IMG/VR virus record: IMGVR_UViG_3300035183_000373
Span: 5,658 to 69,657 of that record
From: a virus
DNA length: 64,000 nt
Strand: one strand, 5' to 3'
The notes beneath the pieces are model-generated. The model was not told the origin of the DNA. It made no database searches and worked only from the letters and a program-made list of their open reading frames with translations. This document shows, piece by piece, positions 23,575 through 62,601 of this stretch. Position numbers and translations under genes: made by a program. Position 1 is the first letter of the stretch. Each line of letters starts with the position of its first letter.

Positions 23575-23610
23575 ACTTGCCTCGTTTAAAAATTATTTAT
23601 AATGTAATGT

Positions 23611-23765
23611 TTGACATTCTCCCGTATAAATTACGGAAGATTCTCAGGCAAACTCCAACGTGGAGCTTAACGCCTGTTGCGGAGTGCCCCTCCGCATGAT
23701 ATTCAATACTGAATTATACATACATTTGAAAAGAATGTATTGACTTTTGCATCAATACATTCTTC
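23611..23765 (-). mobile_element. IS200/IS605-family right-end remnant (tnpB 3' tail / omega-RNA-like)
   Basis: Minus strand reads ...VLNIMRRGTPQQALSSTLEFA-stop, then AGAATCTTCCGTAATTTATACGGGAGAATGTCAA (subterminal hairpin ending TCAA); GC-rich island; 13-bp perfect hairpin at 23731-23764. Confidence 0.55.
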
Positions 23766-23875
23766 TAACACCCATAAGAAATATAATGTTAATAGGTTAA
23801 ATTTTATAGTATAATATTAAAAATATATGTGGTATTTTAGGAGGGAATATAAAGATTGGATTTTTATTAAAAAAA

Positions 23876-30133: not shown

Positions 30134-33100
30134 TTATACTCCAGACTTTATTTCACAAACATCGTTTGAACAGAATTTATCAACGTCAGCTTCAGAACCT
30201 CTAACACGTCCAAAATTAACTTTATTAATATTTTTTATTTTTTCTTTATATTGTTCCTCTGTTATTGCTTCATATGGCATTTGTCTATATGGTTTAGTTG
30301 TATAACGTGGTAAAAATGATATACCTTTTAATTGATATTGGAAATAATTTAATGCATTGGATAATTGATGTCCTTCTTTTTCTGGGTCAAATGTTATAGT
30401 TGCTGACACTTGATTGTCACTCCAATATCTTTGCATAAATGCTGCTAGACATAACTGTTCCCACATAGATACTTCAGATACAGAACGAAGTCCTTCACCA
30501 ACATCTACTGGTATTTCTACAACTACAGTAGATTCTTCTAAACCATAACATGGTTCTATTGTGTATCCTGCTTTTTTTAGAGGTTCTAATAATTTAGAAA
30601 ATTTATTTAATCTTATTCGTCTAATATAAAATCTTGATTCAGGATAATGTATTCCTGGTGTAGCACCAGCAAGTAACGACACTGTATTATGACTTTTTAC
30701 TGCACCAGCATAATACCAATGTGAATTCTCTACTTCTATATCATAGGTATTCATTTCTCCAATTAACGATACACTTTTTACTTTTCCAAGTATTCTATGA
30801 GAAGTTTTTAATTCACAATTCCAAGGTAAATCTGGACGTTTCATATTATAATTTTGCATCTTTACTGAGTGCTTCTTTAATAACATAAAACGTTCAACAT
30901 TAGATTCTGGCATCGAAGTAAGTAACCACATAGATTTTCGTTTTTGCAGATTATATCCTTGTGTATTATGCGACCTACTAAAGACTATACCTACAGCTAA
31001 ACTAATATCTTGTACATGTCTTGCAAATTCTTCATCAGCAGTAGATAATATTACAACATTACTTCTTTCACGAGCACTAACACATCCATCTGCATCTATT
31101 AAACCAGCAATAAATGCTATAATTACCTCAGCACTTCCTTGTCGAATTACTTTAGGAATGAATGATAATTTGTCATTATAATACTTGAACACATCATTAC
31201 GAATAAGCCAATGCCACAAAAATTTAGAACTAATATCTAATGTCCAAGCCTTTCTATGTTGACTTGCTTTATATATTACAGAATCTAATCCAAAATATTC
31301 TTTTACAATATTTTGTGCTTTTTTTAGATTATCCAACCTGCCATCTATAAATCTTATTCTAAATTTACCTGGAGACATAGCACCGTCTCCCCATAAATAA
31401 CCGAAGAACCATGCTAAATCTGGTGTGAGTATTATCGGTTGAAGAATATCTTTAGCGTCTGTTCTCATTTTAAATGAAATAGAATTTAATTCTTTTAAAT
31501 ATACTGGAGAATCTTTATCATAAATACCTGGTACTATTTCTAATATATCTTCTGAAGTTAGTTCGTCTGTTTTTTTCCATGTATTTACGTCATTATATTT
31601 TTTATTTTTGTAATTCTTTTTTACCCACCATAAATGATTACCAGTTGACCTTAATTCTATATTATAACTACATAATATTTTATATACTGGAGTTTTTCCA
31701 TTAACATACGTTTTAACTATTCTCTCTTCAGTATTATTTTCCTGAATAACAGTATATCCTTCACAATTAGACCATATTTCTTTTTCATTATGCTGTTCAA
31801 ATAATTCTTCAAGAGTTAATATACCTTGTTTTGTAGAGGTTAAAGCATCCGATGGCCGACATCCACTTGGTTTTACGCTAGTGGTTTTAATACTTCTTGG
31901 TACAGCTAACCATTCAGAATATATTCCATCCCATTTTTGTATTTCATTATATCCAGCTTCTAACCATTGTCTTAAAGTTTCTATACCATATTTTGTAATA
32001 AATTGAGCTATACCACTTACAGAACATCCTATTCTTCTATTTCTTAAAATAATTCTATTTGTTTCTACCCAATGAGTTTTACCTAAAGTAACTGTTTTAG
32101 CATATAAATATGCATATTTTAAAGTTGTAAGAAAATCTTCTAATGATGAATGTCTATAAGGAAAAGTTTCTACAAGATTGCATAATTCATAGGATTCAAG
32201 TGTTTGCTCTAAACAAGGATTTCCTCCATCTGCACGTCTATCTTTATAATCTGGTCCATTATTCATTCTAGAAAAGTTACGCATGTTTTCTAACCATGCA
32301 AATCCAGGTTCACCATTTATTAAAATTCTTTCACAAACATTTTCGTAATTATCCCCAATTTTTGCAAAAACAGAATTATTACTAGCCCATCCATAACTTT
32401 CTCTATGTGGATTCTTACTATAATTTTTTAAATCTAAATATTCAGTATTATTAATATCACCAAATACTATTTCAGCACTACGCCTAATGTTTCCAGATAC
32501 AACTGCCTTACCAATTAAATTCATTATATCCACAATTGCAGTTACAGATATAGGCTGATTTTTTTCTTTATCTAAAACTTTTTTTATATCATTATGCATA
32601 TCTTCCAATGCTTTATATCCAGAACTTACACCTCCGAATCCACGAATTATTGAACCTGCTGGTCTAATCAATGAATAATCAAATTCTATTGGAGCAGTAC
32701 CTAAAAAATAAGATTCTAATAATAATCTTAATGATTCTACCCATCCCTCTCTTGAATCTGGTATTTGATATACTTCTTTATTTCTTTTTGTATTAGGTCC
32801 TTTAATTATTATTTGTCCAGCTCCAAGAGTATCAAAACCTACTCCAACACCTAACATCGACATATCCATCAAAAATAAAAACGGTTTGGATAAATCTTCT
32901 TTTAAGTTTTTTGTACTAACAAATCCGCAATTATTCAAAGATGCATATAAATTTTTTTCCTCAGTAATTTCACTTCCCATTGCCCATAATCCTCTTCCAG
33001 GTGGGAGAAATTTCATATTAAAGATTCTATCATACATTTGTTGTGCTGACCTTTGAGCTTGCCATGCATTCCAACCACATCCATGAGTTTCTATATGCTT

Positions 33101-33325
33101 TTTCTGCATATTATAAGTACCTTCAACAACTCTTCTACATGTTTCCCACCATTGTTCGTTTTGACAATTGCAATTTTTATAATTATTTTCTTTGCATGAA
33201 GTAGTATGAATTATACGTGAATATGTTTGAAAAAATACTAATTCTCCTAATCCATTAAATCCAAATGGTGGTTTTTTATTTTTATAAGATTCTACAAAAG
33301 AGTCTGAAAGACGAAACTTATCCAT
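30134..33325 (-). CDS. nrdJ: adenosylcobalamin-dependent (class II, monomeric RTPR-type) ribonucleotide reductase with intein
   Basis: PPGRGLW, NNCGF, GNIRRSAE, NPCLEQ...ELCNLVE, KPSG/TVS, C-terminal FCSNDVC. Confidence 0.92.
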   Translation of the reverse strand: MDKFRLSDSFVESYKNKKPPFGFNGLGELVFFQTYSRIIHTTSCKENNYKNCNCQNEQWWETCRRVVEGTYNMQKKHIETHGCGWNAWQAQRSAQQMYDRIFNMKFLPPGRGLWAMGSEITEEKNLYASLNNCGFVSTKNLKEDLSKPFLFLMDMSMLGVGVGFDTLGAGQIIIKGPNTKRNKEVYQIPDSREGWVESLRLLLESYFLGTAPIEFDYSLIRPAGSIIRGFGGVSSGYKALEDMHNDIKKVLDKEKNQPISVTAIVDIMNLIGKAVVSGNIRRSAEIVFGDINNTEYLDLKNYSKNPHRESYGWASNNSVFAKIGDNYENVCERILINGEPGFAWLENMRNFSRMNNGPDYKDRRADGGNPCLEQTLESYELCNLVETFPYRHSSLEDFLTTLKYAYLYAKTVTLGKTHWVETNRIILRNRRIGCSVSGIAQFITKYGIETLRQWLEAGYNEIQKWDGIYSEWLAVPRSIKTTSVKPSGCRPSDALTSTKQGILTLEELFEQHNEKEIWSNCEGYTVIQENNTEERIVKTYVNGKTPVYKILCSYNIELRSTGNHLWWVKKNYKNKKYNDVNTWKKTDELTSEDILEIVPGIYDKDSPVYLKELNSISFKMRTDAKDILQPIILTPDLAWFFGYLWGDGAMSPGKFRIRFIDGRLDNLKKAQNIVKEYFGLDSVIYKASQHRKAWTLDISSKFLWHWLIRNDVFKYYNDKLSFIPKVIRQGSAEVIIAFIAGLIDADGCVSARERSNVVILSTADEEFARHVQDISLAVGIVFSRSHNTQGYNLQKRKSMWLLTSMPESNVERFMLLKKHSVKMQNYNMKRPDLPWNCELKTSHRILGKVKSVSLIGEMNTYDIEVENSHWYYAGAVKSHNTVSLLAGATPGIHYPESRFYIRRIRLNKFSKLLEPLKKAGYTIEPCYGLEESTVVVEIPVDVGEGLRSVSEVSMWEQLCLAAFMQRYWSDNQVSATITFDPEKEGHQLSNALNYFQYQLKGISFLPRYTTKPYRQMPYEAITEEQYKEKIKNINKVNFGRVRGSEADVDKFCSNDVCEIKSGV
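30686..31861 (-). mobile_element. intein with LAGLIDADG homing endonuclease (392 aa)
   Basis: Inserted in KPSG|T: begins CRPSDAL, ends YYAGAVKSHN before Thr; GYLWGDG and IAGLIDADG motifs. Confidence 0.92.
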
Positions 33326-33974: not shown

Positions 33975-34553
33975 TTATTTTTCCCATCGTTCGTAAATTT
34001 TTCTAACAACACCAAGATTTTCAAAACGTTGCATAACTTCAGCTTGGTCTCCAGAATGAAATGTCTCAGGAGACCATTCGTTAAGTATTTTTTGACATAT
34101 TGGTTTATTTATAGTCATTGCTTGACAAAAATACCAAGTTAATTCAGAACAAATAGGATGTTTTGGTGTACCAAACCAATTTTTTCTTTTACGTACATCT
34201 TTATGAAAAAATACTTCCATAAACCATCTATATACAAACCAAACTACTTGTAGAAAATCATACGTTTTTCCAGCAAAAGTAGTGTAAACATATTGTAACA
34301 CTTCTTCTATATGTTCTTGTGGAATAACCCATTCCCATACTTGATAATCGATTGTTAAATCATTTTCAAATACAGATACTGGTTGTTTATTTACTGTCAT
34401 ATCCGCCCCAAAAAATGACGGTATCCCTAATTCATCTGGAAATATAATAGCTGAATGCGTATATGGTTTTCTAGTAAAAAACCTTTGTGCTGTTGAAAAC
34501 CATCCACCTTTTTTAGAATTAAATAATATTATACTTCCTATTGGGTATTTCAT
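33975..34553 (-). CDS. permuted papain-like amidase (YiiX/YaeF-like)
   Basis: YTHSAII His before GKTYD and ICSEL Cys (permuted order), then WSP. Confidence 0.75.
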   Translation of the reverse strand: MKYPIGSIILFNSKKGGWFSTAQRFFTRKPYTHSAIIFPDELGIPSFFGADMTVNKQPVSVFENDLTIDYQVWEWVIPQEHIEEVLQYVYTTFAGKTYDFLQVVWFVYRWFMEVFFHKDVRKRKNWFGTPKHPICSELTWYFCQAMTINKPICQKILNEWSPETFHSGDQAEVMQRFENLGVVRKIYERWEK

Positions 34554-34571: not shown

Positions 34572-35153
34572 TTAGTTTATATACGGTTCCCAAAATTCTG
34601 TTGATTCTAAATTATCAATAAATCCTGATACTAATTCTTTAACTCTTATTTCTATATTTTTTAACATATCTAAAATTTCTTTTGACTTAAAACCTATTTG
34701 TATAAGAGCATTTAATTTTTCTTTAGTATATTCTTCATCATTATCGTCTTCTACTTGTACTATATCATCTAAAACATATTTTATATCTTTATCTTTAGTT
34801 ATACCGTACCATATTCTACGTTTATAAATATCATCAAATGAAAATTGTATATGTAACCATCCACCAGACCTTCCAGCTTGAAATACTGATGATATATCTT
34901 TAAATTCTGATTTTAAATAATCAATAAGATAATCTAATTCAATTGATGCATATTCCCGTATAATATTATCAATGATTTCTGGACTTAATTCTTCTTCTAC
35001 TTCTTCTGGCATATTAAATCTATATATTTTAATATTATATGCTAAATCTCCATTATGGAGATTATCATAATAATAGTTTTTTAATTCATCATACCATTTT
35101 TCATAATTAAGATATTCTAATATATTAGAAAATTTTAAATTTATAGAATTCAT
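34572..35153 (-). CDS. SNIL-module protein (GRSGGW domain)
   Basis: Starts MNSINLKFSNIL; close paralog of the C-terminal half of 36146-37066. Confidence 0.75.
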   Translation of the reverse strand: MNSINLKFSNILEYLNYEKWYDELKNYYYDNLHNGDLAYNIKIYRFNMPEEVEEELSPEIIDNIIREYASIELDYLIDYLKSEFKDISSVFQAGRSGGWLHIQFSFDDIYKRRIWYGITKDKDIKYVLDDIVQVEDDNDEEYTKEKLNALIQIGFKSKEILDMLKNIEIRVKELVSGFIDNLESTEFWEPYIN

Positions 35154-35486
35154 ATTTGACTCTTTTCTAAAATCTGATTTTACTAAATAAACTAAATTTT
35201 TACTTCTATACCAATGTTCTGGTATATAAACTCCACGAGTTTAAGAATTAAGTCTAGTATTCCTTAATACTCTTTCAGGATTTTCATACATTACATCAGA
35301 AAGCATTGCTGAATTAATAAAATATCCTTTTATTTTAGGATTTTCTCCAAGATATAAATAAGGTGATTTATATACTCGTGTATATAAATCTGTAAATTTC
35401 CATACTTGATATGGTGATACAATTTTATCAAAATTTTTTATAAAATCTTTAATATAAAACTTACCTATACTTTCAATAATATTCAT
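35154..35486 (-). pseudogene. N-terminal half of a 36146-37066 paralog interrupted by one in-frame TAA (35241-35243)
   Basis: After the TAA, 29 codons (TRGVYIPEHWYRSKNLVYLVKSDFRKESN) continue in frame into 34572-35153. Confidence 0.65.
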
Positions 35487-35500
35487 ACATTTTATATTTA

Positions 35501-36121
35501 TTATTCATTGCTATATATATCTATATACGGTTCCCAGAATTCCATTGATTCTAAATTATCATGTAAAAGATTAAATCTTTCTTTTATATATTTTTCTATT
35601 TCTTTTGACATATATAACATTTCTTTTGATTCAATCCCTAAATCCATAGGTATATTAAGTCTTTCTTTTTTTTCTTTACTTTCATTAAAAGTATAATCAT
35701 AATTATATTTATATTCTATTATTTTATCAACAATATCGTTAATATCTTCATCGTTAAAAATAGATTCCAAAATTACATCTTTATATCCATATAAGAAAAT
35801 AAATTCTATTTCTAACCAATATCCATTAATTGATATTTTATTTATATCTTTAAATTTTGATTTTAATTCGTAATTCATATTTACTACTTCTTCATAAATA
35901 TTATCGTTTATTATATCATTAATTGCATAACTATTTAATTTATTATTTACTTCTTCAGGTACATTAACATCATATAAATTTTCAATGTAAAATGCTAAAT
36001 TGTTATTATGATAATTATTTTTATTACGTATATAATGATATAATGCATAATACCATCTCTCATAATCAAGATGTTCTAATATATTAGAAAATTTTAAATT
36101 TATAGTGTTAATACTATTCAT
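35501..36121 (-). CDS. SNIL-module protein, diverged paralog
   Basis: MNSINTINLKFSNILEHLDYERW...LESMEFWEPYID. Confidence 0.75.
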   Translation of the reverse strand: MNSINTINLKFSNILEHLDYERWYYALYHYIRNKNNYHNNNLAFYIENLYDVNVPEEVNNKLNSYAINDIINDNIYEEVVNMNYELKSKFKDINKISINGYWLEIEFIFLYGYKDVILESIFNDEDINDIVDKIIEYKYNYDYTFNESKEKKERLNIPMDLGIESKEMLYMSKEIEKYIKERFNLLHDNLESMEFWEPYIDIYSNE

Positions 36122-36145
36122 ATATTTTATATTTACTATTTATTG

Positions 36146-37066
36146 TTATGTGTCTATATACTGTTGCCAGAATTCCATTGATTCTAAATCGTCAATAAAT
36201 CCTGATACTAATTCTTTAACTCTTATTTCTATATTTTTTAACATATCTAAAATTTCTTTTGACTTAAAACCTATTTGAGTAAGAACGTTTAATTTTTCTT
36301 TAACATATTCTTCATCACTATCATCATCTTCTTCTTGTATTATATTATATAAAGCATGTTCTATATCTTCATCTTCAGTTACAGCATCCCATATGTAATA
36401 TTTATAAGTATCATCAAATGAAAATTGTATATGTAACCATCCACCAGATCTTCCAGCTTGAAATACTGATGATATATCTTTAAATTCTGATTTTAAATAA
36501 TCAATAAAATCTTCTAATGCCCATCCTGCTGTACTCCATATAATATTATCAATGGCTTGTGGACTTAATTTTTCTTCTACTTCTTCTGGTATATTAAGTC
36601 TATGTATTTTAATATTATATGCTAAATCTCCATCATGAAGATTATCATAATAATAATCTTTTAATTCATTATACCATCTCTCATAATTAAGATGTTCTAA
36701 TATATTAGAAAATTTTAAATTTATAGAATTCGTATTTGATTCTTTTCTAAAATCTGATTTTACTAAATAAACTAAATTTTTACTTCTTAGCCAAGAATCT
36801 GGTATAGATACTTGAGAATTTAATTTAGTATATGTTAATACTTTTTCTGGATTTTCATTTTCTGAATTAGAAGCTATTACTGAGTTCATAAAACTATCTA
36901 CTCTTTTAGGATTTTCACCAATATAAATATATATGTAATGATTAATTCCATGCTTTTGTAACCCTGGATTTATAAATTTCCATACTTGATATGGTGATAC
37001 AATTTTATCAAAATTTTTTATAAAATCTTTTAAAGAAATCTGACCTATGAAGTTAATAATATTCAT
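36146..37066 (-). CDS. two-module protein (YQVWKF domain plus GRSGGW domain) joined at LKFSNIL
   Basis: Both halves have paralogs elsewhere in the window. Confidence 0.8.
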   Translation of the reverse strand: MNIINFIGQISLKDFIKNFDKIVSPYQVWKFINPGLQKHGINHYIYIYIGENPKRVDSFMNSVIASNSENENPEKVLTYTKLNSQVSIPDSWLRSKNLVYLVKSDFRKESNTNSINLKFSNILEHLNYERWYNELKDYYYDNLHDGDLAYNIKIHRLNIPEEVEEKLSPQAIDNIIWSTAGWALEDFIDYLKSEFKDISSVFQAGRSGGWLHIQFSFDDTYKYYIWDAVTEDEDIEHALYNIIQEEDDDSDEEYVKEKLNVLTQIGFKSKEILDMLKNIEIRVKELVSGFIDDLESMEFWQQYIDT

Positions 37067-38916
37067 AAACTTTTATATAATTGCTCAAATTTTATATTTC
37101 TCCAGTTATCTTTTCTAGGAGTACCTACAGAAATAGAATCTTCTACAACTACATCTTCAAGATTATATCCAAACACACCGTAGACAAAACCATTATATTC
37201 GTCTAATTCTGTAATTCTAACAAATCTTCTAACATCTTGACCTTGAAATTTTCCTTCTCCGTTTCTAATGTATGACCAAATTTGATTTTTTTTAGCATAT
37301 CTAAAAAATTCATCAATATCAAAATAATTATTAGATAAATTACTAAAATCAAAATCAAAACTACTAACCTTTAATTTACCTTCCCACGGTATTCTATTCA
37401 AAACTATACCTTCATACGTAGCTTCCATAGGTTCATCATCCATTTTGTAATATTTTCCATCTGAAGATTCAACATATAAAGCTGAATAAAGTTTATTATA
37501 TTCTTTATGTAATTTCATTTTATTTTCGTATGATATTCCTGTATTAAAAGGAGACCTTTCGTATCTACGATACCTATGTATAACTTTTAATGGAATTCCA
37601 GCAAAATTTAAAAATCTATTCATCATTTCTTTAGTATACTTTGTATACCAACCACCAGTATTAAGTTCTAATTTATTAGGATAAAATTTAATTATAGGAG
37701 TTTCATGATATATTATATTTATAGAATTTAATATTGGGTCAAATTTTATTTTTATACCAGTTACTCCAGCATTTATTTTTTGTCTAATCTTGTATTTAGA
37801 TGGTTCATTAGGTAAATCTCCTAATGGTTCATAAGAAAAGAAACTATTAAATATTTGTGAATATGTAATATGACTATTATTTAATATACTATCTAATTTA
37901 AAAAGTTCTAATATATTAGAAAATTTAAGTAATTGTAAATCATATGTATTATAATTTTGTTTTCTAAAATTAGGATAATCTAATTGTTCTCTTATAGGTT
38001 GTGCAACTGGAGAAATATAACCAACATCATATGAATCTACTTTTATTAAATCTTTTATTTCATCAAATGATAATCTTAATTCCATTAATTGATTTTTATG
38101 TATTGGATTATACACACCAAAAATAAGAATACTATTTCTACGGTCTATACTATTTAAGAATAAATAACAATTTAATAAGTAATTATCTAAATTATTATAT
38201 TTATATATAATATATTGTTTAGTATCTGGTAATAAATGTGAATCAATAAATTCAAGCATCTTATTATATAATTTAGAATCTGGTACTATTACGAAGCTAT
38301 CGCCAATTGTAATTATAGATGATTCTTGAACTCCATTGCTAATAATAGTTTTTGATTTATTGCCACGCATTACTTCAGATGGTTGTTCCAATTGCCCGTA
38401 TATTTTATTTTTCATAAAACAAAACTCGTTTATATTAGATAATTTATTCATATATAATAAATCATCTTTTGCTTTATTTCTCAATTCTGATTCATTAAAA
38501 GAATATAACTTATTACAATTAGCAAGTTCTTCTGAATAACTAATAGATAAAGATACTCTAGCACCTATCTCATAATCAAGTGATGTTTTAAGTTTAACAC
38601 TAGCTAGTCCAGCTGCTTCTACAGCATATGAAACTGCTTCAGCAGGGTTATTAATTTCCATTAAATCAGAATCTGCTAATCTACGTATTAGAGTTGCAGT
38701 ATTCATAAGTTGTCCATATTTTACAGATTCTGGATTTTTAAGCCATCGTTTAACTAAATTAATAGCCGACCGTAGTGATTTATCATTCGGTCTTTCCTTT
38801 TCATATGCAGGAATTATTTTTTCAGCACAATAAATTGCTGTTAATATATCTACCAATATATCACTTGGTACTTCTTTAGGTATTACGTTTAATATATTTG
38901 AAAAACTTAAATTCAT
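37063..38916 (-). CDS. multi-module protein (Imm5-like, MCP-motif module, TGGW domain)
   Basis: FSNIL twice; CAEKIIPAYEKERPNDKSLRSAI (Imm5-like); PIREQLDY; YHETPII...LNTGGWYTKYTKEMMN. Confidence 0.75.
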   Translation of the reverse strand: MNLSFSNILNVIPKEVPSDILVDILTAIYCAEKIIPAYEKERPNDKSLRSAINLVKRWLKNPESVKYGQLMNTATLIRRLADSDLMEINNPAEAVSYAVEAAGLASVKLKTSLDYEIGARVSLSISYSEELANCNKLYSFNESELRNKAKDDLLYMNKLSNINEFCFMKNKIYGQLEQPSEVMRGNKSKTIISNGVQESSIITIGDSFVIVPDSKLYNKMLEFIDSHLLPDTKQYIIYKYNNLDNYLLNCYLFLNSIDRRNSILIFGVYNPIHKNQLMELRLSFDEIKDLIKVDSYDVGYISPVAQPIREQLDYPNFRKQNYNTYDLQLLKFSNILELFKLDSILNNSHITYSQIFNSFFSYEPLGDLPNEPSKYKIRQKINAGVTGIKIKFDPILNSINIIYHETPIIKFYPNKLELNTGGWYTKYTKEMMNRFLNFAGIPLKVIHRYRRYERSPFNTGISYENKMKLHKEYNKLYSALYVESSDGKYYKMDDEPMEATYEGIVLNRIPWEGKLKVSSFDFDFSNLSNNYFDIDEFFRYAKKNQIWSYIRNGEGKFQGQDVRRFVRITELDEYNGFVYGVFGYNLEDVVVEDSISVGTPRKDNWRNIKFEQLYKSL

Positions 38917-41900
38917 TTTTTTAATTGATTATTTAATATATACCATGCGTCTGATTCTGCTTTTAATTTTAATGACTCTACATCAATGGATATGTTGAAT
39001 TGTTGCCTAAGAAAATTTATAGAAGTAAGTGCATCAATTTTATCTTCATAATCACCATTTATTATATATAAAATACTATTTGATATTGCATGAATACAAT
39101 ATTTAAGCATATCATACTTTCCACCAAAATGTAACGCATCAGAATTTACACGATTTTTTAAAATTATTAAATCATTATATGTGTTTTTTAATAATTCTAA
39201 ATTTGAACTTGTTCTTTCAAATATATATTTTTTTGCAATTTTTAATACTTTTCTAATATTAAAATCTTTTTTAACAAAAGATTTATTTTCACAAATAGGT
39301 ATTAATTCTTCTAAACAATATAATAACCAAAGAGAATCTACAATTATCTCTGTAGGAACTTCTGACGGAAATACGTTTAATATATTAGCAAATTTTCCAA
39401 TGTCATTATATATTTTTAATAATTTTGGTGTTAAATATTGAAATGCATTACGTTTAGCTTTTAATTTTAATCCATCGTAATCTAAGTTCTCATTAGCTAT
39501 CAATGCATATTTACGAGATTGGTCTACACGAGCCGTATCTCCATAATTTGAAACTGAAATACCTAAATATCCTGCTGCGTTTGCTATAGCATAACATGTA
39601 TTAGAATTACGTATTTTATGCGACCTATCTAATGCTAATTCACCCTGTAATATAGCATCATTATAATTATCTGTTGTAGGATTATTTAACCACTTATATA
39701 CACTTCTAATTACATTTTTTACTGTTTCATCATTAGGAAATACACTTTCGTACAAAGGTAATAATGATTCTACACAATATAATGCATGTAATAAATTAAC
39801 TAAAGGTTCAGGTAAAAGTTTAGGTAATGAATTAAGTATATTAGAAAATTTAATTGAAGAAACACTATTTAATTTGTTTATTAATTGTTTATTCGATGAA
39901 AATACTAATAAATCTTCATTAATATTTAATAATTTATCAATGTTAGATTTCCCTTTTAGTGGTAAAAATGCTGGTTGAATTTGGTCTATTGAAAATGGTA
40001 TATATGTCCAATCTATTTTTCCTCTAGTACCACGTTCATATTTATTTTTATATGCTATTCCATCATAACCAAATCTTTTAAGTAATAGTTTTAATTCCCT
40101 ATTATTCTTTGGATAAGGAACAATATTTCCATATCTATCAACATATTTACTATTAATTTCATATCCATATTCATCTTCCTCTCCTGGTATATATTTTAAT
40201 ATTTTACGTTTTACTAATGCATCCATAATTTCTTGAATTTCCCAAGTACCTACATCTGGAAGATATAATGGATTTTTAATATTTAAAAATACTGGATGAA
40301 TATTAGGTGCATATTTAATTTCTTTATTATAATTATCATTATAATAAACAGGAACATTTTCTATAAATTTGATAGCTTTTGGTCTATCTGACCATTGTTC
40401 TCTCTTCTTTAATATTATATTTGATTGTTCTACAGGACCAAAATGAAATCCTATTTCTTTGGTTTTCCTTGGATTAAATTCTTCAAAAATAAACGGAGTA
40501 CCATGAAATACTGGTTTTAAACTACCATCTTCATATCGAACTACACTATCTTTAAATGCTTCTTCTACAGAAGGATGTGGTTTTATATCTCTAACATCTG
40601 AAAATTTAGGTGAAGACACTTTTGTTATATTTGTAAATAATAGTCTTGACTCTTTTTTTCTAGGTAGTTCTTTAATCAATTCATTTGCTTCATCGATATA
40701 GTTAGTAGGTACAGTAATATAACCGCCAGTATCATCAACTGGAATACCATGTTCTTTCAAATATTTCACTACAAATTTTATATCATAATCTTCATCCAAA
40801 TCAACAGCTTCTTCAATACCTGACCAATCTATTTTATTTTTCTCAGGATTAAACATTAAACGGCTTCTTTCTCTTGCTATAGCATATCCTTCAGGCGAAA
40901 TTACCTCAGTAAAAACACTGTAATTACCAATACCAAATTTACCATTTAAATAAGAAATAAGAGCTTCTTGCATAAATTTACCAAGACCTTGGTTACGATA
41001 CGCAGCTTTAACAGTTGTCTCAAGTATATAAACTTTATTCCTAATTATTTCAAAATAAAGACTACCTATTACTTTCCCATCGTATATTGCTTCTATATGA
41101 TTTAAAACATGGTTCGTTTTGAAAATAAGTCGTAACTTCGACCAATCAATAATTTTCTTTCTTACTGAGGTTTTTAGAGATGCATCAATTTCCATATCCG
41201 AATCAAACACTCTAATAATATTCGAGAATTTTAATGATGTTATTACTTTATTAAGGTCTTCCTCTTTATCCATAACATGATGCTCTAATGCTATCTCTGG
41301 GTCAATTCCTGGTTCATCGACAATTAATTTCTCTGGGTCAAACATCAAAGACCTACGATAATCAAGCATTTTCTGTCCTTTTGGAGTTAAAGCTCCACTT
41401 ACAATATAGTAATTGTCTACGCCAAATAATCCATTTAGATAACTAATAAATGCTTCTTGTAATTTTTTTCCTATTCCTTTATTTGCATATCTAGGATTAA
41501 CTAATACAACAGTATGACCTATAACTGGTAAACCTTTATATTTTACATCAAGAATCTGAAATCCCATTACACCAATAATTTTTTCTTTATATTTCGCTAC
41601 AATACCTTCTGTATCTGAAGGATAGTCTAAATGTATATTTGAACGATTTACCCATGGTAAATTCGATAATTCATTAAATTCACTTGCTGGAACTACTTCA
41701 TAACGAATTTCATTTATAATATTTGAAAATTTAAGTGAAGAAAAAATTGTATTTCTATAGTCTTCAATAATATTTTTTATAATTAACAATTTATTTAATA
41801 CTTTATTAGAAGATATATTAATAATATTCCAAACATTTATTTGTTTATCTTCTTTTTCTTTTTTAAAGTCTTGTTCTATAACATGATATAAATGACCAAT

Positions 41901-42542
41901 ATCCCATCCAGAATATGCACAGTTCCATGTTATGTTTTGAAATAAATCAGAAAATTTTGGTTCTATTATTAAGTAATCATTACCTCTTACATAATCATCA
42001 CTCCAATTTATATTAATTTTATCATTTGGTAATGCTTCATTAACTTTATTTCTTATATTATTTATGAAATTTTTTTTATCTTCTTCGTTTGTAAAATCAA
42101 TTTTAAATGAATACTTTCCTTTATAAATAGAATGTAAATCTAAAAAGTTGATTAATTTTTCATATTCTTTATTTGCTAACCATTCATAATTAACATCAAT
42201 TGTATTCAATACATTCGATATGTTTTTTAAATAAGAGTGGCTTTTTATTCTTAATTTAAGATTGGGAGGTAAATATCTATTAAAAAAAGAAACATAATAT
42301 GGTATATTTTGAAGTATACCAGATACATATTCTTCTATTACATATCCTTGTAATAAATAAAGGTCATCTCCTGTATGTCTGTATTTGGACATATTTTGTT
42401 CAATAAAATCTTTAGTAGATTTATTAAAATACGGTAACCGTTCTCTTCCAATGTAAGAAACAAATTCTTGCATAAGAGGAACTGGCATAGCTACTTTTTG
42501 TAAATCATTATATTTAGTAATATTTTTAAATGTTAAAAACAT
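38913..42542 (-). CDS. polyvalent multi-domain protein (2 GNAT, ADP-ribosyltransferase-like, 2 Imm5-like)
   Basis: VNPRYANKGIGKKL and VKAAYRNQGLGKFM GNAT motif A; SVVRYEDGSLKPVFHGT...GFHFG...VFLNIKNPL...GYDGI; modules start at KFSNII/KFSNIL/KFANIL/LFTNIT. Confidence 0.8.
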   Translation of the reverse strand: MFLTFKNITKYNDLQKVAMPVPLMQEFVSYIGRERLPYFNKSTKDFIEQNMSKYRHTGDDLYLLQGYVIEEYVSGILQNIPYYVSFFNRYLPPNLKLRIKSHSYLKNISNVLNTIDVNYEWLANKEYEKLINFLDLHSIYKGKYSFKIDFTNEEDKKNFINNIRNKVNEALPNDKININWSDDYVRGNDYLIIEPKFSDLFQNITWNCAYSGWDIGHLYHVIEQDFKKEKEDKQINVWNIINISSNKVLNKLLIIKNIIEDYRNTIFSSLKFSNIINEIRYEVVPASEFNELSNLPWVNRSNIHLDYPSDTEGIVAKYKEKIIGVMGFQILDVKYKGLPVIGHTVVLVNPRYANKGIGKKLQEAFISYLNGLFGVDNYYIVSGALTPKGQKMLDYRRSLMFDPEKLIVDEPGIDPEIALEHHVMDKEEDLNKVITSLKFSNIIRVFDSDMEIDASLKTSVRKKIIDWSKLRLIFKTNHVLNHIEAIYDGKVIGSLYFEIIRNKVYILETTVKAAYRNQGLGKFMQEALISYLNGKFGIGNYSVFTEVISPEGYAIARERSRLMFNPEKNKIDWSGIEEAVDLDEDYDIKFVVKYLKEHGIPVDDTGGYITVPTNYIDEANELIKELPRKKESRLLFTNITKVSSPKFSDVRDIKPHPSVEEAFKDSVVRYEDGSLKPVFHGTPFIFEEFNPRKTKEIGFHFGPVEQSNIILKKREQWSDRPKAIKFIENVPVYYNDNYNKEIKYAPNIHPVFLNIKNPLYLPDVGTWEIQEIMDALVKRKILKYIPGEEDEYGYEINSKYVDRYGNIVPYPKNNRELKLLLKRFGYDGIAYKNKYERGTRGKIDWTYIPFSIDQIQPAFLPLKGKSNIDKLLNINEDLLVFSSNKQLINKLNSVSSIKFSNILNSLPKLLPEPLVNLLHALYCVESLLPLYESVFPNDETVKNVIRSVYKWLNNPTTDNYNDAILQGELALDRSHKIRNSNTCYAIANAAGYLGISVSNYGDTARVDQSRKYALIANENLDYDGLKLKAKRNAFQYLTPKLLKIYNDIGKFANILNVFPSEVPTEIIVDSLWLLYCLEELIPICENKSFVKKDFNIRKVLKIAKKYIFERTSSNLELLKNTYNDLIILKNRVNSDALHFGGKYDMLKYCIHAISNSILYIINGDYEDKIDALTSINFLRQQFNISIDVESLKLKAESDAWYILNNQLKK

Positions 42543-42549
42543 AAACTTA

Positions 42550-45500
42550 TTAATAGTAAATATTTAAGTAATCTAATACTTTTCTAGGATTAGAAAATGT
42601 CCTATATTCACCATCAATGTCTAAAGAAACAATTTTATTAGATGATAAAAGTGATAAATAATATATTAATGCATCTTTAGCTTTAGTATAATTTACAACT
42701 TCAATAGTAGAACCAACAACTCTAATCCAACCTAATCTCAGTAACAATTTTAAAGATTCACTATCATATTCATCAACATTTTCAGTTTTTGATAAAAATT
42801 GTTTTAAACGAGGATTATTTAATACTATTTTATTTGCCAATTGAATATGAGTTTCATTATCTCCAACTTGATATAATTCACCACTTGGACTTATCAAACC
42901 ATAAAAATTTTCTACATAAGATAATCTTACATTTTCTATATATTCTAATGCTTCATTTGGAGATTTAAATAATAAAGGTTTATTTTCTATATCAATAAAG
43001 ACACTTTTATTTGGTGGCAATAAAGATAAATATTCAATTAGTGAATCTTTAGCTTTTTTATAATTACCAATTTCTATATTTTCTCCATCTATTCTTAGCC
43101 AACCCATATTTAAAAGAATATAATTCGCTTTATATAGTTCAGATATTTTTTCTTTATATTTTAATTTATTTTTTAATATATCTACAGCAAGTTGGGCATG
43201 TGTCATTAAAATATCATTGATAGCATAATATTCACCTTCTGGACTCATCCATCCATAAAATGAAGAAAAAGTTTTAATACTACTATTTACTATTTTATTA
43301 TTTTTACTATTTTCTAAAAAGTAATCTATGTTAGTATAATAATAATCAAGTGATGCTTTTTGTTTTTTAAAATTGTATTTACAAAATAAAACTATATAAT
43401 CATCATTAGTAATAAGTCTATCTCCAATAAATTTATATTTAGAATTCAATGCATATTTTTTAACAGCTTGTTTATATGGAAGTGCATTTATTATGTGTAC
43501 ATAAATATAATCTCCTATATCTTTAAAATAAAAAAACCATCTATCGGAATTTTTAATCAATGTTTTATTAAATAAATCTATAATGTTACTACCATTTTTA
43601 GTAAATGGTTTAAAAAGATGATTCAAGAAATAGTCTAATGAAGACCAAGAGTAATATCTATCATCGCATATATAATAAATTACAATATATTCATTATTTT
43701 TTCTTATGGAATTAAATTTTTCTTTTTTATCAAATTCATCACAATGTAAATTTAATATATCTAAATTATAATTTTTATTCTTTGCATCTTGATATTTCAT
43801 AATATCATCTATAGTAACATCTACATTAAAACTGCCATGTTTTGTATCAAAACGTAAATACCAATATTTTGTATTGATAAGTAAATCTTTATTAAAATAA
43901 TCTACTATACTAGATTGTTTATTAAATCTTTTATCAACCACAGCATGCTGTAAAAAATAATCTAATGATGTCCAAGAAAGTAAAGAACCTAAATAAAGAA
44001 TTACTACATTCTTATCTTTTTCTTGAATATCTTTTATTATTTCATCTATATTGTTATAGGTAGTAATAAAATTTGTTTTGTTTAATTTATATATTTTTAT
44101 AGCTTTTGAATATGGAAGTACATTTAAACCACGAAATTCAAGTTCAACGTTTTTATCAGTAAACGGTAATACTAATTTCCAAAATTCATTTTGTAAAAAA
44201 TGTTCTTTAGTAAAATGATTTAATATATTAGAATACTTTTTTTTATTATAAATAAATTCATTCTCTGGATATAACCATGAAATATGTTGTTGTTGTGCTG
44301 CACTTATCTTTTGAACATGAATCTTAATATATCTTGGATATTGTTCATATGTCCCATAAACAATTGGAGGATAATGTTCTCCCTCCAATTCTGAATTAAA
44401 TTGATTAGCAGTTATATCAACAATATTACCATCAACTTCCACCCAGTAATGCAGTGGGGTATACATTTCGGACTCCATTTCCTCATCCGAATTAAAATCC
44501 TCACTATTCCAAGTTTCATATTTAGAATAATCGGGTTTATCAATAATAAATTTACCAATTACAAGATATACATTCTTATAACCTTCTTGTTTAAGTGCCA
44601 ACGCTAATTTTCTAGAACATTCAAGACACATTGCAGTGAAATCAGCATAGTAATCATTAGCACGGATAATATCATTTTGTACTTCCTCTGCTATTTCTTC
44701 TACTGATTTACGAATATTTGAAGTCTTTGATGTATGTTTTGTGAACTTATTATAATTATCAAAATTTTCTATAAATTTATCTAATGCTATTATCATATAA
44801 TTAAGTTTTTTATTTCTTCTATATCTTCCAAATACAACTATTGCTTCTTCATCTTCAAATAAATATTTTTTAGAAAAATCAATATATAATAATGTATTAT
44901 TTTTATTAACATAATAAATACCATCAGAAATATAATAATTGTGTATTTCATCATTAATAATATTTTTTAAACTACTTACTTTTATTACTTCAAAATCAGA
45001 ATTTCTACCCAATAATTTTTTAAATTCAGGTGTTTTAGGTACATAAATATTGTTAAATTGCTCTAAAATATTTGATTCTTTGATTGAAGAATAAGTACGA
45101 AAATCATCTATGTGTTCTATAGCTTCATTAGCATCTATAAATGCTCTAGCATCACCAGAAACTTCCATATATATTGATACATTTTTTGGTAAAAACGAAA
45201 GATACATAATAAGAGAATCTTTAGCTTTTCTCAAATTATGAATTTCTATATTTATCATCTGATAATTTAATTTAGCTACACGTATCCATCCAATTTTTAG
45301 TAAAAATGAAACTGGGTCTATTCTATGATAATACTTTTCTAAGTATTCTTGTAACGCTTTATTATTTTTTATTATCTCTTGCGCAGTTATAAAATGAGAT
45401 TGTGTAACTGAATAAGCATCCCCATTTGGAGAAATCCACAAATCTCCTGTAGGATAAGAACTTTGTTTTTCTTGTTTTTTTAAAGGAATAAAATTTTTAT

Positions 45501-48500
45501 AAAAATCATTTAATGATAACATTAAGTAATATTGTATAGTAGGTTTAATTCCATAAAGTCCAATAACAAATATTTCATTATCTGGAAAACAATTTTTAAT
45601 ATCGGAAATACGATATAAATTAAATGTATTACCACCTTCATAATAATACACAGTCATTGATTGTGGATTAGTTTTTAATAATTCATCTATTATATTATCC
45701 TTTTTTCCAACACTAACTGTAACAAAGGTTAATTGTTTATTTGTTTTTATGAACTTTTTAAATACATTATATTTAGGCACAAATTCAGAATAATTAAAAT
45801 CTAAATAATTAACAATACTTGAACTTTTTTTATTTACAACAGGAACAAAATATTTTTTAAATTCATCAATAGGAATTACTATATATTTTTGTCTATAAAA
45901 TATTAACGCTAATTTTTCATTGTCATCTATTGACAAATCTTTAATGTAATCAACAACTAGTATACCAGATAATAAATTATCAAAAACATGTACATATAAA
46001 TCTGGAAATGCAGATTCAAGATATTTTTTTGTTCCTATATCAAGTAAATCTACTATAGTATTATCTTGTATAAAGAATAATTGTATTGCTCCTTTTTTAG
46101 GTCCTATATATTTAAAAGTGCTAGGTATATGGTCTAATATATTACTGTAATTACTTACAGAAGAATTTTTATAAGATTTTTTTATTTTCACTGGAACGAA
46201 ATATTTATTAAATTCATCTAAAGTAGCTACAATAAAAAAATAACGCTTAAATATTAATAAAACAATTTTTTCATTTTCGTTAAAAGGTAATAAATCAATA
46301 TTATGATATGCTTGTAATTTATTATTTTCTATAATATCTTTTAAATAATAAACTGGAAACCATGTAGGTAATATAAATTTAAGGTCTTTTTTACTATTAA
46401 TAAAATTGTGTAATATTATTTTTGTACGATTATTTAAATAATCTGTTTTAGGTCCTACATATTTATAGTATTTAGTTAATAAATAATTTAATATATTTGA
46501 ATATCTATAAGATTTTCTTCTTTTTACTGGAACGAAATATTTGTTAAATTCATCGATAGAAAGTACTACAGATTTTTGTCGATAAAATATTAATACCAAA
46601 TTTTCATTATCATCTATTGGTAAATCTTTAATATAATTAAGAGAGAATTTATTAGATAATAAATCATCAAAAAAATATACATATAAATTTGGAAATTTTG
46701 ATTCAAGATATTTTTTTGTTCCTATATCTTCTATATTAGAAAAGTATATTATAATATTCTTTTGATTAAAGAAGAATTGTATTATTCCTTTTTTAGGTCC
46801 TATATATTTAAAAGAATTAGGTATATTGTCTAGTATATTACTGTGGTGGGAGATGTCTTGTTCTATTTCTATATTTGATTTTTTAATATCTACATTACTT
46901 ACAGAAGAATTTTTATAATATTTTCTTCTTTTCACTGGAACAAAATATTTATTAAAATCATTTAAAGTAGCTACAATAAAAAAATAATGCTTAAAATGAT
47001 GTTTAAATATTACTAATTTTTCATTATTATCTATTGGTAAGTCTTTAATATAATTAAAATACATTTCACCAGATGACCAATCATCAAGAATACTTATATA
47101 TAAATTTGGAAATTTTGATTCAAGATATTTTTTTGTTCCTATATCAAGTAAATCTACTATAGTATTATCTTCTTTAAACAATAATTGCATTGCTCCATTT
47201 TTAGGTCCTATATATTTAAAAGAATTAGGTATATAGTCTAATATGTTACTATGATGGGATATATTTTGTGATACATTACTTACAGAAGATTGGGACGTAT
47301 TATTATTAATTATATAATTATTAAATTCTTCTTCAGTAGCAATTAAATAATGACTAAAAGTGCCTTCAATTTGTCTATATATTAATAATAATATTAATTG
47401 TTGTTCTTCATCTGGATATGGAGCATATTCTATTTCATGTAATAATTGAGTATCTTTTAATATATAACTTATTGGTAATACTTTAATACCATGATGTCTT
47501 TCAGATAATTCTCTTTTAGTACCTTTATCAATTACTTTACAGTATTCAAATTTATATATTGTATTATCAAAAATTTTATTAGTTAATTGAATAGTATCTG
47601 CAATAGTAAAATATCTATAAAAATCTTCCACACTAGCGATAATATGAAAATCTCTATTTCTACAAGACAAAACAACTATGACATCAGTATCATCATATTT
47701 ATTTAAATTTAATAGTACATTTCCACTATAATCAATTAAATTGTGTATATCTATAAATTTTAATAAGTTCAATCGGTGAATTATATTATTTATTGAATTT
47801 TTGTTTCCTATAAACTGTATATAAAAATGTTGCTTCGCTGGTATTGAAAAGCGTATTAAAGTATTCTTAAAATGCGTAATATATTCAGACTTTATTTGAT
47901 ATTTATTAGTTTCTAATCCTAATTGATGTTCTAATATATTTGAATATTTATAAGATTTTTTTATTTTTACTGGAACGAAATATTTATTAAATTCATTAAT
48001 AGGAATTACTATGTATCTTTGTCGAAGTATTAACGCTAATTTTTCATTGTCATCTATTGACAAATCTTTAATGTAATCAATAGAGAATATACCAGATAAT
48101 AAATCATCAAAAACACTTACATATAAATTTGGAAATGCAGATTCAAGATATTTTTTTGTTCCTATATCAATTAAGTCTACTATAGTATTCTTTTGATTAA
48201 AGAAGAATTGTATGAATTCTTTTTTAGGTCCTATATATTTAAAAGTGTTAGGTATATAGTCTAATATGTTACTATGATGAGATATGTTTTGTGATACATT
48301 ACTTACAGAAGAATTTTTATAAGATTTTTTTATTTTCACTGGAACGAAATATTTATTAAATTCATCTAAAGTAGCTACAACATAAAAATGACGTTTAAAT
48401 ATTACTAATTTTTCATTATCATCTACTGGTAAATCTTTAATATAACTAAGATACATTTCATTAGATGGCCAACTATCAAAAACCTCTACATATAAATTTG

Positions 48501-48735
48501 GAAATTTTGATTCAAGATATTTCTTTGTTCCTATATCAATTAAATCTACTATTAAATCTAATTTTGTAAACAATACTTGCAATATTCCCTTTCTAGGTCC
48601 TATATATTTAAAAGTGCTAGGTATATGGTCTAATATATTACTGTAATGGTGTACATTTCGTACTATTTCTAAATCAATAGTATCATTATCTACTTTTGTA
48701 GAATGTGAATATGGATTATCCTTTAGGTCTTGCAT
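42550..48735 (-). CDS. 2061-aa modular polyprotein-like protein
   Basis: 10 SNI[LI] motifs; about 6 copies of an FKYIGP...FVPVK domain; 3 copies of a (W/L)[IM]SPxG...H...GW[IL]R domain; a Cys...HYWVEVDGNIVDIT transglutaminase-like domain. Confidence 0.8.
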   Translation of the reverse strand: MQDLKDNPYSHSTKVDNDTIDLEIVRNVHHYSNILDHIPSTFKYIGPRKGILQVLFTKLDLIVDLIDIGTKKYLESKFPNLYVEVFDSWPSNEMYLSYIKDLPVDDNEKLVIFKRHFYVVATLDEFNKYFVPVKIKKSYKNSSVSNVSQNISHHSNILDYIPNTFKYIGPKKEFIQFFFNQKNTIVDLIDIGTKKYLESAFPNLYVSVFDDLLSGIFSIDYIKDLSIDDNEKLALILRQRYIVIPINEFNKYFVPVKIKKSYKYSNILEHQLGLETNKYQIKSEYITHFKNTLIRFSIPAKQHFYIQFIGNKNSINNIIHRLNLLKFIDIHNLIDYSGNVLLNLNKYDDTDVIVVLSCRNRDFHIIASVEDFYRYFTIADTIQLTNKIFDNTIYKFEYCKVIDKGTKRELSERHHGIKVLPISYILKDTQLLHEIEYAPYPDEEQQLILLLIYRQIEGTFSHYLIATEEEFNNYIINNNTSQSSVSNVSQNISHHSNILDYIPNSFKYIGPKNGAMQLLFKEDNTIVDLLDIGTKKYLESKFPNLYISILDDWSSGEMYFNYIKDLPIDNNEKLVIFKHHFKHYFFIVATLNDFNKYFVPVKRRKYYKNSSVSNVDIKKSNIEIEQDISHHSNILDNIPNSFKYIGPKKGIIQFFFNQKNIIIYFSNIEDIGTKKYLESKFPNLYVYFFDDLLSNKFSLNYIKDLPIDDNENLVLIFYRQKSVVLSIDEFNKYFVPVKRRKSYRYSNILNYLLTKYYKYVGPKTDYLNNRTKIILHNFINSKKDLKFILPTWFPVYYLKDIIENNKLQAYHNIDLLPFNENEKIVLLIFKRYFFIVATLDEFNKYFVPVKIKKSYKNSSVSNYSNILDHIPSTFKYIGPKKGAIQLFFIQDNTIVDLLDIGTKKYLESAFPDLYVHVFDNLLSGILVVDYIKDLSIDDNEKLALIFYRQKYIVIPIDEFKKYFVPVVNKKSSSIVNYLDFNYSEFVPKYNVFKKFIKTNKQLTFVTVSVGKKDNIIDELLKTNPQSMTVYYYEGGNTFNLYRISDIKNCFPDNEIFVIGLYGIKPTIQYYLMLSLNDFYKNFIPLKKQEKQSSYPTGDLWISPNGDAYSVTQSHFITAQEIIKNNKALQEYLEKYYHRIDPVSFLLKIGWIRVAKLNYQMINIEIHNLRKAKDSLIMYLSFLPKNVSIYMEVSGDARAFIDANEAIEHIDDFRTYSSIKESNILEQFNNIYVPKTPEFKKLLGRNSDFEVIKVSSLKNIINDEIHNYYISDGIYYVNKNNTLLYIDFSKKYLFEDEEAIVVFGRYRRNKKLNYMIIALDKFIENFDNYNKFTKHTSKTSNIRKSVEEIAEEVQNDIIRANDYYADFTAMCLECSRKLALALKQEGYKNVYLVIGKFIIDKPDYSKYETWNSEDFNSDEEMESEMYTPLHYWVEVDGNIVDITANQFNSELEGEHYPPIVYGTYEQYPRYIKIHVQKISAAQQQHISWLYPENEFIYNKKKYSNILNHFTKEHFLQNEFWKLVLPFTDKNVELEFRGLNVLPYSKAIKIYKLNKTNFITTYNNIDEIIKDIQEKDKNVVILYLGSLLSWTSLDYFLQHAVVDKRFNKQSSIVDYFNKDLLINTKYWYLRFDTKHGSFNVDVTIDDIMKYQDAKNKNYNLDILNLHCDEFDKKEKFNSIRKNNEYIVIYYICDDRYYSWSSLDYFLNHLFKPFTKNGSNIIDLFNKTLIKNSDRWFFYFKDIGDYIYVHIINALPYKQAVKKYALNSKYKFIGDRLITNDDYIVLFCKYNFKKQKASLDYYYTNIDYFLENSKNNKIVNSSIKTFSSFYGWMSPEGEYYAINDILMTHAQLAVDILKNKLKYKEKISELYKANYILLNMGWLRIDGENIEIGNYKKAKDSLIEYLSLLPPNKSVFIDIENKPLLFKSPNEALEYIENVRLSYVENFYGLISPSGELYQVGDNETHIQLANKIVLNNPRLKQFLSKTENVDEYDSESLKLLLRLGWIRVVGSTIEVVNYTKAKDALIYYLSLLSSNKIVSLDIDGEYRTFSNPRKVLDYLNIYY

Positions 48736-52161: not shown

Positions 52162-52374
52162 TTATATACCAAATCTATATCTATATTCATTACTATGTCC
52201 ATATCCATACACATGTCCATCTCCATATCCATGTCCAAGTCCATATCCATAACCATGTCCATACCCATGTCCATATCCATGTCCGTATCCATATCCATGT
52301 CCATGTCCATACCCATTAAGACGTGTGAATGTAAATAAATGTCTATTAGTATATTCAAATAAAAGGATATTCAT
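52162..52374 (-). CDS. Gly-X repeat peptide (His-rich, GHGYG)
   Basis: MNILLFEYTN leader. Confidence 0.7.
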   Translation of the reverse strand: MNILLFEYTNRHLFTFTRLNGYGHGHGYGYGHGYGHGYGHGYGYGLGHGYGDGHVYGYGHSNEYRYRFGI

Positions 52375-52414
52375 AATTTTTCATATCAATAATTATTTAT
52401 ATTATTATTCATTT

Positions 52415-52657
52415 TTATATATTAAATCCATATCCATTACCATAACCATCACCATATACATATCCATATCCAAGTCCATATCCATAACCATCACCATAAC
52501 CATATCCATTACCATAACTATCACCATATCCATATCCATTACCATAACCATAACCATCACCATCACCATCTCCATCTCCATTTCCATATCCATCTCCATA
52601 CCATTCAATGTGATTAATTTGGTATTTATTAGTATATTCAAATAAAAGTATATTCAT
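52415..52657 (-). CDS. Gly-X repeat peptide
   Basis: MNILLFEYTN leader; nearly pure (GGW NAT)n core. Confidence 0.7.
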   Translation of the reverse strand: MNILLFEYTNKYQINHIEWYGDGYGNGDGDGDGDGYGYGNGYGYGDSYGNGYGYGDGYGYGLGYGYVYGDGYGNGYGFNI

Positions 52658-52693
52658 AATTTTTACAATAAATATTTATATTATTATTCATTT

Positions 52694-52936
52694 TTATATA
52701 TCAAATCCGTATCCATATCCGTTGCCATCTCCATATCCATTACCATATCCATATCCATTACCATTTCCAAATCCATTACCATATCCATCTCCATATCCAT
52801 TACCACGTTCATCTCTATATCCATTACTACGTCCATCTCCATATCCATACCCATGTCCATATCCATACCCATCTCCATACCATTTAATGTAATTAATTTG
52901 GTATCTATTAGTATATTCAAATAAAAGTATATTCAT
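52694..52936 (-). CDS. Gly-X repeat peptide
   Basis: MNILLFEYTN leader. Confidence 0.7.
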   Translation of the reverse strand: MNILLFEYTNRYQINYIKWYGDGYGYGHGYGYGDGRSNGYRDERGNGYGDGYGNGFGNGNGYGYGNGYGDGNGYGYGFDI

Positions 52937-56044: not shown

Positions 56045-56265
<221 letters not shown>

Positions 56266-56269
<4 letters not shown>

Positions 56270-62406: not shown

Positions 62407-62601
62407 ATGACTACAACTCTACTTGAAAATATTGATACACATGTAATTTTCCATGTTAATGGAAATGGAAATGGATATTGGCATGGGTACGGGTTTGTAA
62501 ATGGCAATGGTTATGGTAATGGGTATGGATATGGATATAAATCATCTATTAAATGTGGTAGTGGGAATGGTTCTGGAAATGGATACAACAATAATGTGTA
62601 G
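62407..62601 (+). CDS. Gly-X repeat peptide (plus-strand member)
   Basis: GNGNGYWHGYG...GNGYGNGYGYG core directly behind a promoter. Confidence 0.65.
   Translation: MTTTLLENIDTHVIFHVNGNGNGYWHGYGFVNGNGYGNGYGYGYKSSIKCGSGNGSGNGYNNNV

Follow-up and report, generated by a model that had tools for sequence, protein, structure and literature searches.

Only in very few systems is it known how phages direct injected enzymes, anti-defence proteins and other non-structural cargo to the capsid. In phage T4, IPI-III and Alt carry an N-terminal capsid targeting sequence, a tag of about ten residues that binds the scaffolding core and is removed at an [LI]-x-E site, the site of T4-type head proteases. Encapsulins load their cargo through peptides in a flexible C-terminal cargo tail, which dock inside the HK97-fold shell, on a surface close to its N-terminal segment; these peptides are not known to be copies of shell protein sequence. 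Polyvalent proteins, long proteins of phages and conjugative elements in which unrelated modules are strung together, draw on a conflict repertoire of ART-PolyVal, GNAT, peptidase, nuclease and other domains, and capsid packaging has been predicted for them (Iyer et al. 2017, PMC5512222). Here we examine the peptide PIREQLDY, which occurs both in the major capsid protein and in a 617-aa modular protein encoded on a 64,000-nucleotide stretch of DNA from an uncultured, phage-G-like giant phage (the window; positions 5,658 to 69,657 of IMG/VR virus record IMGVR_UViG_3300035183_000373). The record is 69.7 kb long and estimated to be 41% complete; the window is 28% G+C, and its minus strand carries nearly all of its genes.

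Set beside these systems, the locus shows likenesses and differences. Like the T4 targeting sequence, PIREQLDY is short and, as a tag, would take non-structural cargo into the prohead. It differs in standing at the C-terminal end of a module (residues 307-314 of 617), in resembling the shell protein and in having an unconserved Glu, and judged by its sequence the tail falls outside the T4-type class. With the encapsulin peptides it may have in common the place of a short conserved peptide in a probably flexible C-terminal tail; the difference is that the tail here matches the sequence of its own shell protein, and docking on that shell is hypothetical. The likeness to polyvalent proteins lies in the unrelated small modules strung in long phage proteins, whereas the passages of that source drawn on here (PMC5512222) describe no capsid-like peptide, and the module that bears the motif is found in two phage lineages only. 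In P22, phi29, SPP1 and T7, the scaffold-coat contact involves the N-arm surface that a mimic would imitate, but there the scaffold binds the real coat, and the portions of the source used here describe no N-arm copy elsewhere (bioRxiv 10.1101/2022.12.13.520362).

An earlier note on this DNA had reported the shared peptide, and both reverse complements indeed translate to PIREQLDY. On the minus strand, 37975-37998 encodes residues 307-314 of the 617-aa polyvalent-type protein (37063-38916), and 20915-20938 encodes capsid protein residues 56-63, just before ARKFLEIDVLAQG in what is probably the N-terminal arm region. The first copy reads CCT ATA AGA GAA CAA TTA GAT TAT and the second CCT ATT CGT GAA CAG TTA GAC TAT. 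Five of the 24 bases differ, all synonymously as had been stated, and four of the eight codons are unlike. The two genes are also strongly unlike in G+C (40.5% versus 25.0%). Unlike codons and unlike composition together give no sign of a recent DNA copy. The synonymous differences had been taken to mean that the peptide rather than the DNA is conserved; they do fit selection on the peptide, but they fit an independent origin equally well.

Within the 617-aa protein, the motif lies in the tail of a middle module of unassigned function (residues 185-318; 37963-38364, minus strand). Of the 40 matches from an exhaustive phmmer search against 1.84 billion representatives, P0020 alone covers residues 185-318, with its own residues 1364-1497. 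This protein belongs to a 172-kb relative bearing terminal repeats (G002), whose capsid protein is 93% identical to that of the window. Scans of IMG/VR and a metagenome collection with patterns from the module found nothing beyond the same 171,836-base contig (one relative in 292 metagenome pattern matches). A complete 194-kb relative with an 83% identical capsid protein (G001) is without the middle module, has the C-terminal modules and carries PIREQLDY in its capsid gene only. The G002 middle module is the last in a 1509-residue protein, which ends ...STMPQPVRDCLDYPRFNLIKKDEEQEVQV and then a stop codon, 13 residues from the motif; the next G002 gene begins with the module that follows the middle module in the window. 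Downstream of the peptide in the window is the LKFSNIL junction that had been noted before, at residues 330-336 (37909-37929, minus strand), 16 residues after PIREQLDY and at the head of the next module. These sequences place the motif in the C-terminal tail of a unit with a fused neighbour in the window and a free end in G002.

The two middle-module orthologs are 31-35% identical overall. In a two-sequence alignment their tails form a conserved block, QPIREQLDYPNF in the window (residues 306-317; 37966-38001, minus strand) and QPVRDCLDYPRF in G002, with the consensus Q-P-[IV]-R-[ED]-x-L-D-Y-P-x-F. The G002 tail reads PVRDCLDYPRF, which over the octapeptide is identical at five of eight positions and conservative at two. 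The capsid proteins of G002, G001 and the IMG/VR loci L004-L007 all read PIREQLDY, so the G002 module tail departs at three of eight positions from a motif that the G002 capsid keeps, and the module motif drifts independently of the invariant capsid motif. The earlier note had proposed that absence of the motif from orthologs would indicate chance or neutral capture, and that relatives be searched for peptides co-varying with their own capsid protein. In the one ortholog the motif is retained as PVRDCLDY, which argues that PIREQLDY is not a neutral one-off capture, but what is retained is not the exact capsid peptide. Likewise, a counterpart is present in G002, but its tail drifts off the capsid motif. 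Because that motif is invariant among module-bearing phages, co-variation with the capsid cannot be shown, and because the G002 tail is unlike its own capsid motif, exact mimicry is not required.

We found modest evidence in these sequences for selection on the module tail. The tail block has 8 of 12 identities between the orthologs and does not stand out within the module (permutation P = 0.39): LLPD.KQ, IGDSF, IFGVY and DLIKV are conserved as well as it is. Three near-identical variants of the 617-aa protein (91-99% identity) keep VAQPIREQLDYPNF, with none of 14 columns variable in the four-variant comparison versus 8 of 21 in the flanking linker; the P value for this invariance is 0.009 to 0.06 by the bounds chosen, and 0.27 versus the whole C-terminal half. 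An AlphaFold2 (AF2) model of the module, built from the two-sequence alignment, shows a small alpha/beta core with a predicted local distance difference test score (pLDDT) of 71-87 up to the strand DLIKV (residues 291-293), and the motif tail scores below 50. On this model, the PIREQLDY tail is probably flexible. Foldseek found no PDB entry matching the module core at E <= 0.001 (best 0.2), and no look-alikes of residues 180-330 were found in the ESM Atlas. Complex prediction with the capsid alignment and the module plus tail scored 0.20 against a mark of 0.32 and says nothing either way.

Chance was estimated over 92 non-overlapping open reading frames (ORFs) of the window, 19,589 aa in all, with a model of independent and identically distributed residues and with 300 residue shuffles. 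Under the model, the expected number of exact 8-mers between any two unrelated window proteins is 0.044, and 5.3% of the shuffles held at least one. Between the capsid protein and all remaining window proteins, the expectation falls to 0.0014. Besides matches between paralogous modules, one 7-mer is the only other long match between unrelated proteins, with a shuffle expectation of 0.8. The 8-mer match is uncommon for one window, but chance yields several over many thousands of phage windows. At that scale the a priori chance is not negligible, which we count for coincidence.

The reading we favour, at about an even chance, is that the module tail carries a selected motif and that its identity with the capsid N-arm is a coincidence. 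PIREQLDY would then be one part of the short conserved tail defined by the ortholog consensus. That tail would close a rare accessory module of about 135 residues, with the junction peptide of the next module shortly after it; the protein that contains the module is of polyvalent type and probably carried by the virion. Selection would keep it for a role of the module itself, perhaps capping the small alpha/beta core or docking to a partner. The conserved core residues would already be capsid-like, and the window lineage would happen to match at the two free positions too. The earlier note had inferred capsid mimicry, but a lone exact 8-mer, even with synonymous DNA differences, is insufficient for that inference. 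The letters of the sequences alone tie the module tail to the capsid, and the present evidence mainly documents an apparently selected tail motif, borne by a module that is itself very rare.

The modular context of the motif is well marked along the protein. Four separable modules, each with its own relatives and partners, give the 617-aa protein the several unrelated domains of a polyvalent protein. They are an Imm5-like module (residues 1-156; 24.9 bits, cut-off 25), the middle module, a Kyano_Gp96-like module (residues ~396-472, matching small phage proteins that carry Kyano_Gp96) and a C-terminal module (residues 525-615) that ends many giant proteins. The gene stands in a row encoding modular proteins of 2061, 1209, 617, 306, 206, 81 and 193 aa (34572-48735, minus strand), in which modules start with [KH][FYH]SNI[LI]. 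This junction peptide occurs 17 times in six of the nine ORFs examined, every copy at a module start, including the N-termini of small ORFs. The 2061-, 1209-, 306-, 206- and 193-aa neighbours share the modular build, and giant proteins elsewhere, up to 3069 aa long, contain modules of the array as well. The Imm5-like module is paralogous to two modules in the upstream 1209-aa ORF, which, in addition to its Imm5-like modules, has two GNAT domains (50 bits, above cut-off) and an ART-PolyVal match of 26.1 bits, below the cut-off of 31.2. The array genes share their strand with the virion genes, and no shared promoter motif was found by eye. By analogy with described polyvalent proteins, the 617-aa protein and its neighbours have that architecture, and the 617-aa protein is probably carried in the virion. 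A word-index search of 5.8 billion clustered proteins returned no full-length relative of the 617-aa protein (self only, among 7,999 scored candidates), and tblastn against a phage collection gave no match. Related phages differ in junction dialect: G002 puts KTADII or SLKF[AGS]DII where the window has [KH][FYH]SNI[LI]. The peptide at these joints may serve for cleavage, docking or recombination.

The capsid gene (20156-21103, minus strand) encodes a 315-aa protein of the HK97-fold family of phage G gp27. The ORF matches phrog_2522 (E 1e-50), and its product shares 39% identity with gp27 of Bacillus phage G. A profile built from 48 relatives aligns with the solved phage G capsid chain 6wkk_A (E 2.6e-83) over profile positions 36-305 and chain residues 12-278 of 280, and PIREQLDY falls inside the aligned part. 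By this homology, the ORF encodes a full-length homolog of the capsid protein seen in the solved capsid. Tail sheath, tube, baseplate and tape-measure-like genes lie downstream. In the family alignment (48 sequences, 56-98% identity), every sequence has P56, I57, R58, L61 and D62, and 47 have Y63. Position 59 varies (T 29, E 11, Q 8), as does position 60 (Q/E). The phage G counterpart is PIRVSLDY, and distant family members read PIQLQLRY or SLRRRRDY. PIREQLDY lies seven residues ahead of ARKFLEIDVLAQG; the usual order of HK97-fold elements, together with a likeness of ARKFLEIDVLAQG to the HK97 strand after the N-arm, would place the motif at the end of the N-arm. An AF2 model of the capsid protein from the 48 sequences has a mean pLDDT of 57.8 and is below 50 at residues 54-126, where the motif is not reliably mappable. 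The genes adjoining the capsid gene have no similarity to phage G head genes, so no scaffold candidate comes from there. Phage G gp19 has been called a head maturation protease (PMC12484599); no homolog of it was found in the window record or in G002, and G001 gave a weak match only (E 5.8e-6).

Two related capsid genes have unusual structures. That of G002 is interrupted between codons 51 and 52, four codons before PIREQLDY (L007:8827-10795), by an insert of ~1 kb that encodes a 276-aa LAGLIDADG_2 endonuclease (PF03161, E 4.8e-25). Rfam found no intron in the insert, and the N-terminus of the endonuclease holds YKYSNIL, the junction motif in the dialect of the window, unlike that of G002. At ~4276-4299 of a further locus (L034, IMGVR_UViG_3300035698_013511), a capsid gene of the same family has an open frame of just 91 codons around the motif and may also be interrupted.

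Searching for further cases, we found that an IMG/VR DNA pattern for PIREQLDY matched five stretches, four of them capsid genes and one reading PISEQLDY, with no other non-capsid case. The pattern for PIRTQLDY, the commonest family variant, matched 18 stretches (17 capsid genes and one in a 14-codon frame). In three related records, P[IV]R[DE]xLDY occurs in capsid genes and two module tails only, and a reversed control gave 0. The other large proteins of the array hold no such peptide, and one module alone of the many bears the motif. The literature searched yielded no account of a cargo protein that copies a capsid N-arm.

Several results weigh against coincidence and would suit a loading tag, which we consider unlikely but not negligible. 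The tail, perhaps together with a preceding acidic helix, would copy the capsid N-arm segment and bind the procapsid partner of that segment, a scaffolding protein or a neighbouring capsid subunit, and the module or polyprotein would enter the head for later injection. Full identity over eight residues falls on the most conserved N-terminal motif of the capsid family, and the conserved positions of the two families coincide: the residues kept in both module orthologs (P, I/V, R, L, D, Y) are those conserved in the 48 capsid proteins. Two of the three ortholog differences fall at the capsid-variable positions 59 and 60, a placement with a chance of roughly 0.1 by our own count. Weak similarity extends into the 25 residues upstream of the motif (residues 282-306; 37999-38073, minus strand) and their counterpart in pairwise comparison, capsid residues 31-55 (20939-21013, minus strand). 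There the flank LSFDEIKDLIKVD resembles capsid ISVDQVFDALQTE, including S-x-D-x-x-x-D. The ungapped BLOSUM62 score of the flank is 15 against a null mean of -23 (standard deviation 10.7), and 8e-4 of 172,563 pairs reach it, as do 12 of 17,090 and 22 of 16,788 positions in comparisons with other window proteins; the resulting P of ~0.001 is uncorrected and, with eight flank lengths tried, nearer 0.01. For the same pair, BLASTP gives E 4e-4 with 12 of 33 identities, and hhalign aligns 41 columns with a probability of 31% and E 5e-4.

The position of the motif is also tag-like, in a low-confidence tail after the last core strand, 16 residues before the junction and 13 before the G002 stop, and its block is invariant amid a variable linker. 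Docking peptides usually sit in flexible tails near the end of a protein. The bearer belongs to a polyvalent-type row, and capsid packaging of such proteins has been predicted (PMC5512222). The coat N-arm is the scaffold-binding site in P22, phi29, SPP1 and T7 (bioRxiv 10.1101/2022.12.13.520362), which makes a loading tag mechanistically possible. Against a loading tag, the G002 tail differs at three of eight positions from an unchanged capsid motif. The motif is confined to one module of many, with the other large proteins of the array lacking it, and G001 does without the module altogether. The patterns for two motif variants gave no second case in IMG/VR, a capsid model with such low pLDDT there does not fix where the motif stands in the fold, and packaging of the array proteins is itself only predicted. 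In a wider form that we judge rather improbable, giant-phage cargo modules would be loaded into the head by shell self-mimicry, a flexible tail (acidic helix plus P-I-R-x-x-L-D-Y) replacing the capsid N-arm on a scaffold or subunit. If true, an N-arm copy would be a simple, testable loading signal for many large-phage polyvalent proteins, a handle for packing foreign proteins into capsids and a loading principle distinct from the T4 targeting sequence.

The same flank similarity would also fit an old event in which the array captured a 5' stretch of the capsid gene (~residues 31-63), now decaying or repurposed and involving no present mimicry. The BLASTP and hhalign alignments indicate that similarity may span 33-41 residues, and array modules are visibly reshuffled between phages, appearing in other proteins and in other orders. 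We nevertheless regard such a capture as quite improbable. The G002 flank scores -23 against the capsid, no better than average, leaving no flank similarity in the ortholog, and the DNA bears no trace beyond the codons that the peptide needs. An unselected 8-mer, moreover, would not survive intact in a module that is 31-35% identical between orthologs.

Some defence systems sense capsid proteins, and the earlier note had offered a decoy for them as one purpose of the mimicry. An injected decoy or competitor would show the epitope early and so blunt or mistime the response, and the conflict-type domains nearby (GNAT, ART-PolyVal-like and Imm5-like) would be in keeping with such a role. It is a very improbable one: a protein that displays the trigger epitope should provoke an abortive response instead of preventing one, the G002 tail is unlike its capsid counterpart, and the phage has no known defence sensor or host. 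A shared head-maturation protease site (I-R-E, cut before Q) is scarcely credible, since the I-x-E pattern of both proteins resembles the T4-type [LI]-x-E site but Glu59 varies in the capsid family, the Glu position is Val in phage G and Asp in the G002 module, the motif lies inside the solved phage G chain and thus in the deposited capsid protein sequence, and the recurrent junction signal is KFSNIL rather than PIREQLDY. A clamp-binding or PIP-type motif for QLDY..F was also considered and dropped, the Gln being Cys in the ortholog.

Elsewhere in the array, the first ~1000 residues of the 2061-aa protein (42550-48735) are tandem copies of a module of ~130 residues, with long identical stretches that include DIGTKKYLESKFPNLY and EFNKYFVPVK. 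A plus-strand ORF far from the array (63252-63713) is an apparent dispersed paralog of two small array proteins, having the 9-mers IGQISLKDF and YLYLGENPK in common with the N-terminal parts of the minus-strand ORFs 36146-37066 and 35241-35486. Directly after the array, a 192-aa ORF (33975-34553) matches phrog_1128 (enoyl-CoA hydratase-like, E 1.6e-12) and has no Pfam match; the enoyl-CoA hydratase-like fold is shared with ClpP-type peptidases.

Three further features of the window lie apart from the motif and the array. A 301-base spacer upstream of a 608-aa ORF (23575-23875) is hairpin-prone and unusually G+C-rich for this genome, and Rfam gave no match in the window, including this spacer, or in L007. 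At 30134-33325 lies a class II ribonucleotide reductase whose sequence is split by an intein that contains a LAGLIDADG_3 homing endonuclease domain. Small ORFs at 52162-52936, 56045-56269 and 62407-62601 encode Gly-Tyr-His or Gly-Asn-Tyr repeats (GYGHGYG, GNGYGNGYG) and have shared N-termini.

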